This document shows, in pieces, positions 40,011 through 46,084 of a DNA stretch of 64,000 nt. The position numbers and the translations under genes are program-made. Each line of letters starts with the position of its first letter. Within the stretch, counting starts at the first letter, position 1. The DNA comes from Patescibacteria group bacterium. GTDB lineage: Bacteria > Patescibacteriota > Minisyncoccia > UBA6257 > GWB1-50-10. Location: assembly GCA_023474215.1 (NCBI GenBank), contig JAMCYI010000016.1, positions 8,265 to 72,264 of the forward strand, read 5' to 3'. Below the pieces are notes generated by a model. It made no database searches. It was not told where the DNA came from and saw nothing but the letters and a program-made list of their open reading frames with translations.

Positions 40011-43000
40011 TTATTGCCCGAAGAATCCCTGCGTGCATGTCGTAAGTTTGACTTGCGTCGTCTTTACCGTGCACTGAGCATTCGGAATGCTCCCCCATGC
40101 CCCACTGCAGCTTGCCGACGTTCCTCCACCTAAGGAACTATCCGTGTTGTAGGCGACCGTATAGAACGTGTAGCTGCTGGGACATTGGAGGCTGATGGCA
40201 TTCGTATTCCCAGACGGCGCTGCCGAGCTGCTCAAGAGCTGTGACGTCGAATACTGCCCTCCTTGGACATACACATTGAACCCACTTGCCGTCCCCGACC
40301 ACGTCGAATTGATAGTCGACAATCCGGAAACCGGCGTGGCGTTCACCGTGACGCCGGAGGAACTCGGCGCGGAAACTGACGTATATTGGTACGCGTTCGC
40401 GTTCGAGCATGTCGTGCCGCTGGTATTCCCCGCATTGTCGTAAGCGTTGGCGCAGACCGTGTACGAGTTGACCGACGAGAAGGTCACGCTGGAACCCGAG
40501 GTTGAAGGCGAACACGTCGAGCCGTTCGTGGTGTAGCAGTAGTGGTAGCCGCCGGTTCCCGATCCGCCGCTGTCGGTAGCGGAGAAGGAAACGGTGATAT
40601 TGCTGTTATTAGTCAAAGCCGACGTCGGGCTCAAAGAAGGCGCTGCTGGAGCAGTGGTGTCAATCTTGTATGCATTCGCACTGGAGCAGGTTGTGCCGCC
40701 GGTGTTCCCCGCATTGTCGTAAGCATTGGCGCAGACCGTGTATTGGGATTGGCTGGATAATGTTACGCTCGATCCGGCCGCACTCGGCGAACACGTCGAG
40801 CCGTTCGTGGTGTAGCAGTAGTGGTAGCCGCCGGTTCCCGATCCGCCGCTGTCGGTAGCGGAGAAGGAAACGGTCACCGGGCCCGTCCCCCATCCGTAAG
40901 AGGCAGGGCTCAAGGAAGGCGATGGCGGAGCGGTGGTATCAATGTAGTAATTTACAGAACCGGTTCCGCCGGTGTTCCCAGCATTGTCGGTTGAATACGC
41001 TTGCGCCGTCTGTCCTCCCGTCAGAGAGCAGGGGTAGGTGAATGATGCAGAAGCAGTACTACTCCAAGCATTACTGGTATTGCAGCGATAATAGGTGGTA
41101 CTGAGTCCCGATCCGCCGGTATCCGAAGCGGAAACCGATATCGTGACATTGCCATTCGTCCATCCCGAAGGACTCGCCGAGATCGAAGGCGTTGCCGGAG
41201 CAGTGGTATCTAAGTTATACGTTCCGCTCCATGTCCCCTGGTTCCCCGCACCATCCTGCGCACAGAGATAAAGTGTATTACTACCTTGCCCAGGAATCGT
41301 AAGGTTCGCCCCATTCGAAGTCGCGGTACCCGACGCCCAGCAATATGATAGGCTGGTATTCCACGTGTACTTTACAAATGCAAGTCCCGATCCGCCGGTA
41401 TCCGAAGCGGAAACGGTCACCGTCGGACTACTGTTATACCACCCGCTCGAGGAATTGCTTGCAGAGACGGTCGGAGGAGTAGTATCCGGACATGCGCTCG
41501 TTGTAATGGTTGCCGGCGACCCCCACGGGCTGCAGCCAGTCGTATTGTTCGGTCCGTCGCAAGCGTAGATCATATATGTGTAAGATGTGGCACAGCTCAA
41601 GCCGCTAGCCGTAAATGAATTCGTCGTCACGGTGCCGACATCCAAGTTCGGCGGGTTCTGAGAAACATGATAATACGTTGCAAGTGGAACCGCAGGCCAT
41701 GTGATGGTGATCGAACTTGCACTGATACTGCTCGCCGATGGCGCGCTTGGCGTACAGGCGGACGTTTTAGCCGAAGCGCCGGTACCCGTACCGGAATAAT
41801 ACGTCCGGCTATTCGTATTCACGTACGCCTGGACATAGTTGGAATTGCCGCCGGTGCTGCAGGACATCGGAACGTTCACGGATGTCGCCGACGGCCCCGC
41901 CGTGGCGCTCCCCATCACCATCCCCAAACCGCTGTCGTTCAGAGTAGCCACGAAGCCGCTTTGATCGGTGGGGGCAGTAGGCGTCCACGAAACCGGAATA
42001 TAGGTTTGACTCGCATATGATGTGAAGGTAACGCCCGATGGCGTACCCGGCGTTTGAGCATCGGTGGTTACCGAAAAACTCGAAGCCGGCGAATAATATG
42101 TCCTGCCATTGGTATTTACATAAGATTGAATGGTACCCGTGTACCCAGTACCGGCAGAAAGACCCGAAATACCGGCCGATGTAGAACCGGATGAGGCATA
42201 CCAACCGCCTACGTACGATATGCTAATGAAAAATCCGCTTTCGTCGTAGGGGCTGTTGCGCGTCCAATACACATTGGCCGTCGTCTGACCGGTCGGAGAA
42301 GCCGAGACACTGCTCGGCTGACCGGGGGTACACGCATCGGTTGTTGCGGAAGCTCCCGATCCCCACCCGCTGCACCCACCGGCATTGCACGCTTCAATTT
42401 CGTAACTGTAAGATGTACCACACGTTATGCTATAGGTGTTATCCGTAAAGGAAGTTCCGCTCACCGTTTGGATATCAATACCCGGCGCCCACCGCGCGAT
42501 ATGGTAACTCGTTGCACCGGAAACGGCGCCCCACGAAAGAGACATTGAGTATTGTCCCGCCGGCGTCACCGAGGGAGCTCCCGGAACGGCTGGGGGATTC
42601 GGCAATGTCGTTATGTTAACAGTATTGGAAGCACCAGAATTTCCTCCGGAGTTATAAGCAACAACGTAATATGAGTATGCCGTGTTTGCCGTGAGGCCAC
42701 TATTGGTATAACTCGTCACCCCCGTAGCGGTGAGATACGATCCGTTGCGGTAAATGTAATATCCGCTCGCGCCGGATGAGGCGCCCCACGAAAGATAGAT
42801 TGATGTTTGGGACTGAGCGCTTCCCGAAAGAGTACCCGGATTCGACGGTAACGTCGTTGCGCTTGCCGTGTTCGTACAGGTGCCGTACGCGCCGCCGGTG
42901 CAAACCTGAAACGTCACGCTGGTACCGGGAGCAAAATTGCCCGTACCGGTTATGGATTGCACGGTCGGCGAAGAAGGACACGTCGAATTGAATGAGGTAT

Positions 43001-43262
43001 AAACGCTCGTCGGCGAACAACCGCTTCCCGTACAGTAGTATTCATACACGGTTTCGTTGATGCCGGTTCCCGTCGGCGAACAGCTCCACTGCAACGAAAC
43101 CTGGGAGGAGCTGTAAGGATTAACCGTCAAACTGGAAACGGACCACGAGCCGACGCTCGCGAGAGCCTGCTCCGCGAACGGAACATGGAAAAAGACAAGA
43201 GCACCCGCCCCAACCATTAGCGTCGCAACGAAGATGCCGACCAGAACTTTTCCCCTTTTCAT
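40011..43262 (-). CDS. giant Ser/Thr/Gly-rich secreted surface protein with Fn3-like repeats
   Basis: Start MKRGKVLVGIFVATLMVGAGALVF at 43262; about 1084 aa; repeated modules (TGGYHYCYTTNGSTCSPS twice); DNA tandem repeats about 290 bp (40515-40590 vs 40805-40880 identical). Confidence 0.7.
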   Translation of the reverse strand: MKRGKVLVGIFVATLMVGAGALVFFHVPFAEQALASVGSWSVSSLTVNPYSSSQVSLQWSCSPTGTGINETVYEYYCTGSGCSPTSVYTSFNSTCPSSPTVQSITGTGNFAPGTSVTFQVCTGGAYGTCTNTASATTLPSNPGTLSGSAQSQTSIYLSWGASSGASGYYIYRNGSYLTATGVTSYTNSGLTANTAYSYYVVAYNSGGNSGASNTVNITTLPNPPAVPGAPSVTPAGQYSMSLSWGAVSGATSYHIARWAPGIDIQTVSGTSFTDNTYSITCGTSYSYEIEACNAGGCSGWGSGASATTDACTPGQPSSVSASPTGQTTANVYWTRNSPYDESGFFISISYVGGWYASSGSTSAGISGLSAGTGYTGTIQSYVNTNGRTYYSPASSFSVTTDAQTPGTPSGVTFTSYASQTYIPVSWTPTAPTDQSGFVATLNDSGLGMVMGSATAGPSATSVNVPMSCSTGGNSNYVQAYVNTNSRTYYSGTGTGASAKTSACTPSAPSASSISASSITITWPAVPLATYYHVSQNPPNLDVGTVTTNSFTASGLSCATSYTYMIYACDGPNNTTGCSPWGSPATITTSACPDTTPPTVSASNSSSGWYNSSPTVTVSASDTGGSGLAFVKYTWNTSLSYCWASGTATSNGANLTIPGQGSNTLYLCAQDGAGNQGTWSGTYNLDTTAPATPSISASPSGWTNGNVTISVSASDTGGSGLSTTYYRCNTSNAWSSTASASFTYPCSLTGGQTAQAYSTDNAGNTGGTGSVNYYIDTTAPPSPSLSPASYGWGTGPVTVSFSATDSGGSGTGGYHYCYTTNGSTCSPSAAGSSVTLSSQSQYTVCANAYDNAGNTGGTTCSSANAYKIDTTAPAAPSLSPTSALTNNSNITVSFSATDSGGSGTGGYHYCYTTNGSTCSPSTSGSSVTFSSVNSYTVCANAYDNAGNTSGTTCSNANAYQYTSVSAPSSSGVTVNATPVSGLSTINSTWSGTASGFNVYVQGGQYSTSQLLSSSAAPSGNTNAISLQCPSSYTFYTVAYNTDSSLGGGTSASCSGAWGSIPNAQCTVKTTQVKLTTCTQGFFGQ

Positions 43263-43273
43263 ACTTTTCTCTA

Positions 43274-45016: not shown

Positions 45017-45022
45017 AACTCC

Positions 45023-46084
45023 ATGAAAGTCTCCATCATCCTCCCCTGCCGAGACGAGCGGGACATGGTCGGATCAGTGGTCAAAGAAGCGCTGGAGGCG
45101 CTCAAAAAAAACGGCATCGACGGGGAGATTATCGTTTCCGATTCGTCGACCGACGGATCGGCCGAGATCGCCAGGGCCGCGGGGGCCAGAGTTGTGGAGC
45201 ACGGCAAAGAGGGCTACGGACTCGCGATCAAAGCGGGTCTGAACATGGCGACCGGTGATGTGGCGGTTTCGGCGGACGCCGACGGGGCACACGACCTGGA
45301 GGCGCTGCCGGAACTCGTGAAGGCGCTCGATCATTCGGATATCGCGATCGGGAGCAGGTTCGACGGCAACATCGAGGACGGAGCCATGCCTCTCCTGCAC
45401 CGTATTTTGGGGACTCCCCTCCTCAACGTCCTCCTCTTCGTTTTTTTCGGCATCAGGGTCTCCGACAGTCAGTCCGGCTTCAAGGCCGTCAGGACTGCCA
45501 CGTTCAAAAAACTCGACAGCGAGATCAAGAGCACCGCCTTCACCTACAACACCGAGATGCTCATCAAGGCAAAAAAAGCGGGCCTCAAGATCAGCGAAGT
45601 CCCGATCCATTGCAGGCCGAGAAGAGGCAACCCGAAGCTCAGAACGTACCGCGACGGGACCGCCAACATCAAATACATTCTCATGCTCGCTCCCTTCATC
45701 TTCTATGCCGCAGTCGGCGGCGCTCTCTTCCTCCTCGGCGCGGCCGAACTTGCTACCAGAAGCCTCCTGCCCGCTTTCTTGAACCGGCCGACGGTGACGA
45801 TCTTCTTTCCCCTCCTCGGCGTGCAGATCATTTTCCTCGGTCTCTTCGTTAAAACGTATGCCGTAACGAAACTCGGAGAACGGATGAGCTTCATTGATTC
45901 GTTCTACCGCGCCGGAAAACAGAAGCTCCTCCTTGTCCTCGGCGGTCTCCTCATCATCGTACCGGCAGCTCTCCGGCTATTCGGCCTGGCCGGCGATCAC
46001 TTTGACATCCTTCTCGTCTCCGCCGTGATCGGGCTCCAGGTGGTATTCAACGTCGGCATCCTCTCCACGCTCTCCGTCAAATGA
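45023..46084 (+). CDS. GT2 glycosyltransferase, polyprenol-phosphate sugar synthase (DPM1/Ppm1-like) with C-terminal TM anchor
   Basis: MKVSIILPCRDE...VSDSSTDGS...DADG (DxD)...QSGFKAV; two C-terminal TM helices. ORF-track N-terminal extension (44336-45022) is antisense to the membrane protein. Confidence 0.75.
   Translation: MKVSIILPCRDERDMVGSVVKEALEALKKNGIDGEIIVSDSSTDGSAEIARAAGARVVEHGKEGYGLAIKAGLNMATGDVAVSADADGAHDLEALPELVKALDHSDIAIGSRFDGNIEDGAMPLLHRILGTPLLNVLLFVFFGIRVSDSQSGFKAVRTATFKKLDSEIKSTAFTYNTEMLIKAKKAGLKISEVPIHCRPRRGNPKLRTYRDGTANIKYILMLAPFIFYAAVGGALFLLGAAELATRSLLPAFLNRPTVTIFFPLLGVQIIFLGLFVKTYAVTKLGERMSFIDSFYRAGKQKLLLVLGGLLIIVPAALRLFGLAGDHFDILLVSAVIGLQVVFNVGILSTLSVK

Follow-up and report, generated by a model that had tools for sequence, protein, structure and literature searches.

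Pairs made of a GT2 enzyme that synthesizes a polyprenyl-phosphate sugar and a membrane-embedded GT-C transferase are an already known kind of system. GacI/GacL act on streptococcal rhamnan, CsbB/YfhO on lipoteichoic acid, and GtrB/Gtr on O-antigen, and Ppm1 together with GT-C mannosyltransferases acts on phosphatidylinositol mannosides and lipomannan made by GT4 enzymes. The ultra-small bacteria of the candidate phyla radiation (CPR) and DPANN archaea depend on touching the surface of a host cell, and despite this little about how their own surfaces are built and decorated has been shown experimentally. The GT-C enzymes TMTC and TMEM260 are dedicated to beta-sandwich domains, with cadherin and IPT domains as their targets (PMC7801869, PMC10214176), and the O-glycosylation pathway of archaea has been called "still elusive" (PMC8241124). 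Here we describe a candidate glycosylation module in 64,000 nucleotides of DNA from a Patescibacteria group bacterium (contig JAMCYI010000016.1; the whole stretch is called the window below). It consists of a GT-C-fold membrane protein and a divergently encoded GT2 partner, and it lies next to the gene of a giant Ser/Thr-rich surface protein.

The GT-C-fold membrane glycosyltransferase, which belongs to an unclassified family, is encoded at 43274..44986 on the reverse strand. Its open reading frame (ORF) extends to 45016 and corresponds to 580 amino acids (aa); every homolog begins at M11 of this frame, so that the likely start is at 44986 and the likely length 570 aa. The GT2 gene (45023..46084, forward strand; 353 aa) runs divergently, with 6 bp between the two starts if M1 is used and 36 bp if M11 is used, as an earlier interpretation of the letters alone (the sequence-only reading) had stated. 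That reading had also described a 580-aa polytopic protein downstream of the giant gene. The polytopic protein stood, with about 14 predicted transmembrane (TM) segments; its placement did not, as the GT-C gene lies upstream, in the direction of transcription, of the gene for the giant protein (40011..43262, reverse strand; 1083 aa), separated from it by a gap of 11 nt. A promoter and terminator scan of 39.0 to 47.5 kb gave counts no higher than in shuffled sequence and is thus uninformative on operon boundaries.

We consider it well supported that this locus encodes a lipid-carrier-dependent glycosylation module acting outside the membrane. It is highly probable that the module works in two steps, in which the DPMS-like GT2 makes a polyprenyl-phosphate sugar and the GT-C protein uses this sugar outside the membrane. 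With respect to the acceptor, our best explanation, tentative at a probability of about 0.45, is that the module glycosylates Ser/Thr residues of the giant protein.

Neither Pfam nor NCBIfam has a model that recognizes the GT-C protein or its 12 closest homologs; a 100% identical database entry (Patescibacteria group bacterium) is annotated as a hypothetical protein. An AlphaFold2 model computed with 13 homologs (predicted local distance difference test [pLDDT] score of 77, predicted TM-score of 0.77) was compared with the PDB using Foldseek. All 20 matches at E ≤ 1e-3 were GT-C enzymes, each at a probability of 1.00, comprising AftA (the best, at 3.6e-7), AglB, yeast and human STT3, PglB, and DPY19, so that the GT-C likeness suspected by the sequence-only reading is borne out by the modeled fold. 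Behind these ranked 3vu0, a structure of the A. fulgidus AglB-S2 C-terminal domain on its own, and further down stood unrelated MFS transporters at probabilities below 0.2 and E values above 0.08. TM-scores against the GT-C structures are modest (0.35 to 0.47), and PMT and ArnT structures were not among the 50 best Foldseek matches listed.

The predicted topology, from a model that combines hydropathy with the positive-inside rule, has about 14 TM segments and satisfies the rule in every loop. It places a 64-aa loop outside the membrane after TM4, the first long outside loop, and this loop carries an HxDEW block; the DE motif that had been looked for in the first periplasmic loop is therefore present in this predicted topology as an invariant pair. 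The full block, P-H-x2-Y-x-W-x2-H-x-D-E-W, is invariant in 13 homologs and contains H133, D135, and E136, and across 53 diverse members that are 18 to 37% identical, H133, D135, E136, W137, and R412 are invariant or nearly so. CPR GT-C proteins carry three extra N-terminal helices ahead of the canonical first helix, and in the short DPANN forms the HxDEW loop is the first loop. The C-terminal 117 residues, which include two invariant Cys residues, are predicted to lie outside and to form an alpha/beta domain, which Foldseek matched to the AglB-S2 domain 3vu0 at E values of 0.02 to 0.12, a probability of 1.00, and TM-scores of 0.51 to 0.55. Judged by its modeled fold and its acidic motif, the protein is a member of the GT-C superfamily. 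That its donor is a lipid-phosphate sugar we infer solely from the conserved adjacent polyprenyl-phosphate GT2.

The analogy to protein O-mannosyltransferases (PMT, GT39), drawn by the sequence-only reading, did not survive. Neither the window protein nor its 12 homologs match PMT (PF02366) or PMT_2 even at E ≤ 10, a MIR domain is lacking, and the C-terminal domain appears AglB-like instead; the closest folds are those of AftA, oligosaccharyltransferases (OSTs), and DPY19.

The partner protein is, by sequence, a polyprenyl-phosphate GT2 of the DPMS/AglJ/ArnC-like kind, as judged from its GT-A domain (Pfam Glycos_transf_2, 3e-20), its DxD motif, and its similarity to characterized members. Its best relative in the PDB is P. 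furiosus DPMS (5mlz, 1.4e-14), followed by ArnC (1e-7), and the motifs DAD and SDSQSGF are conserved in an alignment of 15 orthologs. Four hydrophobic segments at about residues 218 to 352 are conserved in the same alignment and would fit the C-terminal TM anchor that had been noticed from the letters; the C-terminal anchor of P. furiosus DPMS has four TM helices. Among NCBIfam models, AglJ matched best (1e-32; 113.6 bits versus a cutoff of 325), and a haloarchaeal dolichol-phosphate (Dol-P)-hexose transferase model reached 5e-28 (97.5 bits versus a cutoff of 375). Since every equivalog match (AglJ, Dol-P-hexose transferase, PpgS, and ArnC) falls below its cutoff, the sugar cannot be named. 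A single-sequence structure model of the GT2 had a pLDDT of 48 and was discarded.

The GT-C protein belongs to a family that extends well beyond this clade. A profile search of 1.84 billion representatives retrieved 637 relatives at E ≤ 1e-3, mostly of 470 to 520 aa and without the first ~95 residues of the CPR form, and when the broad alignment was used for a word-indexed homolog search, a single new protein was gained. Members with a source name are DPANN archaea (Woesearchaeota, Altiarchaeales), and the CPR profile and the short-form DPANN profile align over 467 columns in hhalign (probability 100%, E value 3e-66); the family is an uncharacterized one common to Patescibacteria and DPANN archaea. 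In Pfam, 10 of the 53 diverse members match DUF6541, another count of 10/53 applies to DUF1616, and 2/53 match PTPS_related; one of them matches PMT weakly (E 0.0053), one distant relative has a weak EpsG match (E 0.001), and an Altiarchaeales member carries a DUF1616 annotation. PTPS_related (PF10131) is listed as a member of the GT-C clan (PMC7801869), and relatives that match DUF6541, DUF1616, PTPS_related, and, weakly, PMT thus provide sequence bridges to this clan.

A second line of evidence connects the family to AglB. Searched against PDB sequences, the DPANN short-form profile found 3vu0 (AglB-S2) at an E value of 0.007 and 3vgp (AglB-S1) at 0.024; the same kind of search with profiles of the CPR or mixed alignments returned no GT-C enzyme and no full-length OST, and hhalign gave no alignment between the CPR profile and a single 80-aa AglB-S2 fragment. 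The position of the WWDYG motif reads "EPSMG" in the window protein, in which G500 is the only residue retained, and "le.iS" in the DPANN profile. Given the apparent AglB likeness of the C-terminal domain and the loss of WWDYG, the family seems to be a remote branch of the STT3/AglB lineage without the motif that reads the N-X-S/T sequon. Membership in the canonical OSTs (GT66) was rejected, with no match to the STT3 model (PF02516) in 13 close or 53 diverse members and no WWDYG.

The candidate acceptor has the composition that the sequence-only reading had ascribed to a giant secreted protein. Its 1083 residues begin with a hydrophobic segment that may serve as signal or anchor, and they include 18.1% Ser and 15.1% Thr (33.2% together), 11.6% Gly, and only 3.9% Asp, Glu, Lys, and Arg combined; other secreted proteins in the window contain only about 20% Ser plus Thr. 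Pfam and NCBIfam recognize FN3 as well as four OmpL47-type beta-sandwich modules. These four domains are encoded by four DNA modules spaced 270 to 279 nt apart and 72 to 89% identical, so that the "near-identical ~290-bp tandem repeats" reported earlier are in fact somewhat shorter and considerably more diverged; TRF detects a repeat with a period of 279 nt, 1.9 copies, and 79% matches at 40405-40943. N-X-S/T sequons are not enriched in the protein (20 observed versus 21.2 +/- 3.8 expected), which speaks against N-linkage.

The arrangement of the three genes is conserved among CPR relatives. We compared loci whose GT-C proteins are 34 to 94% identical to that of the window, 20 of which include the upstream side of the GT-C gene and 19 the downstream side. 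The GT2 is its divergent neighbor in all 20, a GT4 gene stands next to the GT2 in nearly all of the loci, and Wzm/Wzt genes lie inside the cluster in most. Downstream, a giant-protein homolog with 29 to 33% Ser plus Thr follows the GT-C gene in 16/19 loci, usually with a cupredoxin-like gene next in line. In reverse look-ups that started from giant-protein homologs, the GT-C and GT2 genes were found upstream in two of three cases. The conservation with the GT2, on which the sequence-only reading had staked its proposal, was thus borne out, as was the three-gene arrangement. The pairing with the GT2 reaches further still. In a comparison of 63 distinct distant loci, mostly of DPANN relatives, a GT2 homolog is adjacent in 23 and lies within three genes in 27, and within the same distance 24 have a GT4 and 14 have Wzm/Wzt. 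One relative that matches DUF6541 likewise has a divergent GT2 neighbor.

On the other side of the GT2 lies a glycan cluster whose members had all been listed correctly from the letters. A GT4 gene (46081..47190, forward; Pfam Glycos_transf_1, 2e-28), part of the conserved synteny, overlaps the GT2 stop by 4 nt. It is followed by two tandem GT-B-like paralogs of 327 and 328 aa (47162..49119, reverse; Glycos_transf_1, 6e-9 each), four tandem GT8 genes (49214..53380, forward; Glyco_transf_8, 3e-22 to 2e-15), and a fusion of a GT2 with a methyltransferase-like domain of the IRX15/GXM (DUF579) kind (53355..54812, forward; PF00535 at 1e-28, PF21729 at 1e-38). Then come the ABC ATPase Wzt (54781..55527, reverse; ABC_tran, 2e-20) and the ABC-2 permease Wzm (55637..56392, reverse; ABC2_membrane, 3e-6), which from their sequences are an exporter of a glycan or lipid-linked glycan. 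The clustering of this pair with the cytoplasmic GT4, GT-B, four GT8, and GT2-GXM enzymes is that of ABC-transporter-dependent glycan assembly. No initiating phosphoglycosyltransferase of the WecA/WbaP type and no WaaL or LCP ligase was seen among the ~45 window ORFs scanned, and none of the ORFs scanned between 37.8 and 63.5 kb has a Pfam match to a GtrA/GtcA-family or Wzx flippase.

Considering these data, we propose the following mechanism. At the cytoplasmic face, the GT2 would transfer a sugar from a nucleotide sugar to polyprenyl phosphate, as its homologs suggest, and the co-operonic GT4 may attach a second sugar. The lipid-linked sugar would then be flipped, possibly by Wzm/Wzt, a dedicated flippase not having been found in 37.8 to 63.5 kb. 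At the outer face, the GT-C protein would transfer the sugar by means of the HxDEW site in its external loop and the conserved R412; fold and motif are what we observe for this step, and its chemistry we infer. In this clade, the acceptor would most likely be Ser/Thr carried by the beta-sandwich modules of the giant protein that is co-transcribed with the enzyme. This choice is prompted by the tight co-transcription, which is kept over deep divergence, by the unusual and conserved composition of the giant protein, and by the AglB-like C-terminal domain of the GT-C protein. That the acceptor is a protein, whether reached in a single step or by transfer of a whole glycan, appears to us somewhat more probable than not.

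Several observations weigh against the giant protein as acceptor, and most of them lend themselves to a different scenario, in which the GT2/GT-C pair employs the same two-step chemistry to decorate or extend, at the outer face, the polymer exported by Wzm/Wzt, itself the product of the neighboring GT4, GT-B, GT8, and GT2-methyltransferase genes. In three CPR loci (L006, L016, and L017), GT-C, GT2, GT4, and Wzm/Wzt are all retained, but the giant gene is missing downstream of the GT-C gene. Conversely, the Patescibacteria relative L104 has an intact giant gene without a GT-C gene. Among the 63 distant loci, 44 have some glycan assembly or export gene within three genes, the GT2, GT4, and Wzm/Wzt genes counted above among them, and only 4 have a large protein with at least 20% Ser plus Thr within two genes; of the dedicated O-glycosylation trio that the sequence-only reading had envisaged, the GT-C fold and the GT2 pairing thus hold, and the giant protein is not a constant third partner among the distant relatives. 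For the pilins, which that reading had named as perhaps also glycosylated, the data offered no support. The GT2 gene forms one operon with the GT4 gene and the remaining glycan cluster. The best Foldseek match, the arabinosyltransferase AftA, has a polysaccharide acceptor. Furthermore, residues 129 to 165 of the first outside loop are modeled at a pLDDT below 50, and the Ser/Thr residues of the giant protein are spread evenly over its folded domains rather than gathered in mucin-like linkers. The synteny of the CPR clade also reaches unrelated genes (a Y1-transposase-like gene and LTD proteins), so that the adjacency of the GT-C and giant genes may be partly inherited rather than selected, and what singles out the giant protein in the last step of our mechanism is operon conservation and composition only. 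Nevertheless, it is the giant gene, and not the glycan genes, with which the GT-C gene shares its direction and close spacing, in 16/19 loci and down to 34% identity; the C-terminal domain of the GT-C protein appears similar to the peptide-binding domain in AglB, not to a carbohydrate-binding module; and the cluster shows neither a GtrA/Wzx flippase nor an LCP/WaaL-type ligase. A glycan or lipoglycan acceptor is therefore, in our opinion, the main alternative explanation, possible but somewhat doubtful.

The lack of an initiator and of a ligase in the cluster means that the GT2 and GT-C proteins could take both roles, and together with the constant GT4 partner, which the transfer of a single sugar would not require, it keeps an archaeal-style en bloc pathway alive. 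Here, an oligo- or polysaccharide begun on polyprenyl monophosphate by the AglJ-like GT2 would be lengthened and capped in the cytoplasm by the GT4, GT-B, GT8, and GT2-methyltransferase enzymes and exported by Wzm/Wzt, and the OST-like GT-C protein, taken as a WWDYG-less descendant of the AglB/STT3 lineage, would ligate it whole to Ser/Thr, making the giant protein an S-layer-type glycoprotein. AglJ as the best, albeit below-cutoff, NCBIfam model of the GT2, the likeness of the GT-C protein to AglB/STT3/PglB in fold and C-terminal domain, and the recurrence of the GT-C, GT2, and GT4 trio in DPANN relatives, whose named members are archaeal, are all consistent with this route. We nonetheless regard it as unlikely. 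The STT3 model and WWDYG are absent from the protein, and its conserved acidic residues amount to one pair (D135/E136), where OSTs typically have several acidic metal-binding residues; sequons are as frequent in the giant protein as expected by chance; and a phosphoglycosyltransferase could lie elsewhere in the genome, of which 64 kb are covered here. To our knowledge, the extension of a glycan linked to polyprenyl monophosphate is not established in bacteria. Finally, the membrane protein might not be a glycosyltransferase at all, acting instead as a polymerase, ligase, or transporter (Wzy/WaaL-, DUF2079-, or MFS-like) or as an inactive scaffold for the giant protein. It has no direct sequence match to a curated GT-C model, the TM-scores are modest, and a relative has the weak EpsG match. 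However, the significant Foldseek matches are all GT-C enzymes at a probability of 1.00, with transporters only at E > 0.08, the acidic first-loop motif and the Arg are kept throughout the family, and the pairing with a polyprenyl-phosphate sugar synthase is constant, which renders this idea highly improbable. A Wzy-, WaaL-, or DUF2079-type identity, in particular, was rejected in view of the GT-C fold and the lack of any such match. We thus retain glycosylation of the giant protein by the GT2/GT-C module as our preferred reading.

A number of further features of the island were noted. Directly behind the giant gene, after a gap of 16 nt, the last gene of the string that begins with GT-C encodes a small cupredoxin-like protein that has a TM anchor and a linker rich in Ser/Thr (39437..39994, reverse; Pfam Cupredoxin_1, 2e-7), which is part of the conserved synteny. 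TM-anchored proteins of this kind recur directly after giant surface-protein genes in the window and in relatives; the window holds two (39437-39994 and 56883-57353, both reverse), and a 1519-aa LTD protein (30119-34678, reverse) bears a cupredoxin-like domain at its C terminus. In L016 (11823-13164) and L017 (11835-13176), the GT-C gene is followed by two genes, one for a hydrophobic protein of 201 aa and one for a second GT2, which is short at 252 to 257 aa; these may be a flippase and a second lipid-sugar synthase. In L104 (1366-6921), GT2, GT4, and Wzt are left as fragments of 119 to 158 aa, as if the module were decaying there.

Within the glycan cluster, the GT-B-like paralogs (47162-48145 and 48133-49119, both reverse) are 78% identical and share a central block of ~165 aa that is 100% identical, which indicates recent duplication or gene conversion; their equivalents in relatives are single ORFs of 686 to 830 aa. 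The four GT8 paralogs have overlapping ends and are represented by one to three genes in relatives. The DUF579 part of the fusion protein at 53355-54812 (forward) resembles a plant-type glucuronoxylan methyltransferase, and chain methylation and capping in the Wzm/Wzt pathway may be the task of the fusion. Two IS200/Y1-transposase-like genes (37784-38542, reverse; 58039-58809, forward), 50% identical and inverted, flank the whole surface-protein and glycan island. Because relatives carry homologs at comparable places, these genes may have been domesticated and no longer be mobile. Two PF05635 ("23S rRNA intervening sequence protein") genes (56471-56818 and 57522-57812, both reverse) lie between Wzm and the next giant protein gene. 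Elsewhere in the window, at 1-980 and 10810-12277, lie the 16S (bacterial) and 23S rRNA genes, both on the reverse strand and separated by ~9.8 kb that hold two tRNAs and several protein ORFs; 980 nt are taken up by the first 648 positions of the 23S model, so that an insertion is implied.

The locus brings to light a GT-C family that lacks annotation and has a donor synthase as its fixed partner. What is new is a GT-C family that has no curated model and is absent from the literature searched, an OST-like but WWDYG-less C-terminal domain, the occurrence of the family in both CPR bacteria and DPANN archaea, and, in one CPR clade, the operonic coupling of the GT-C protein to a giant Ser/Thr-rich protein. 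Our literature search found no paper on DUF6541, a single paper that mentions DUF1616, listed there as a glycoprotein annotation, and nothing on protein O-glycosylation in CPR bacteria. In the CPR clade with this coupling, the giant protein is a directly testable candidate acceptor. If the acceptor is indeed a protein, the module would be a new bacterial protein O-glycosylation system and a lead toward the archaeal O-glycosylation enzyme, in which an OST-like scaffold has shed its sequon-binding motif and been reused for another acceptor. Should the transfer to Ser/Thr occur en bloc, the DUF6541/DUF1616 family would become a candidate archaeal O-glycosyltransferase, and this Patescibacteria clade may have acquired an archaeal-style pathway or have it in common with DPANN archaea. 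If the acceptor is a glycan, a new GT-C family would join the side-chain decoration systems.

Compared with described systems, the locus shares with the three-component systems GtrA/GtrB/Gtr(type), CsbB/GtcA/YfhO, and GacI/J/K/L, and with ArnC/ArnT, a GT2 synthase beside a GT-C protein in an ABC-exporter cluster. It differs from them in that a flippase gene of the GtrA, GtcA, or Wzx kind was missing from the ORFs scanned in 37.8 to 63.5 kb, and in that the GT-C gene is co-transcribed with the giant protein gene, not with the glycan genes; at the sequence level, the GT-C protein is unrelated to YfhO, GtrII, and PMT_2. To the uncharacterized membrane-protein families DUF6541 (PF20176) and DUF1616 (PF07760) the connection runs through the distant relatives, which match these models, whereas the window protein and its 12 closest homologs stay below every Pfam threshold. 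The Ppm1/DPMS-PMT systems of actinobacteria and eukaryotes resemble the module in their GT2-made lipid-phosphate sugar, in a GT-C enzyme with a DE-type motif in the first loop, and in the Ser/Thr acceptor proposed here, and TMTC and TMEM260 resemble it in having beta-sandwich acceptors, as found in the candidate giant protein. Unlike those enzymes, the window protein matches none of the PMT, PMT_2, TMTC, and DUF2723 models and has neither MIR nor TPR domains, and unlike in the Ppm1/PMT case, the genes for synthase and transferase are adjacent and divergent.

With the GT66 enzymes STT3, AglB, and PglB, the GT-C protein has in common the GT-C fold and the presence of an acidic motif on the first loop outside the membrane. 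It departs from them in lacking an STT3 match, in carrying "EPSMG" in place of WWDYG and a single acidic pair, in the absence of sequon enrichment, and in the three additional N-terminal TM helices of the CPR clade. The likeness is closest for the short A. fulgidus proteins AglB-S1 and AglB-S2, which are similar in length to the GT-C protein and to whose outside C-terminal alpha/beta domain its own appears related, in structure and, through the profile of the DPANN relatives, also in sequence. As in the euryarchaeal Dol-P-based pathways, the partner in this Patescibacteria clade is an AglJ-like GT2.

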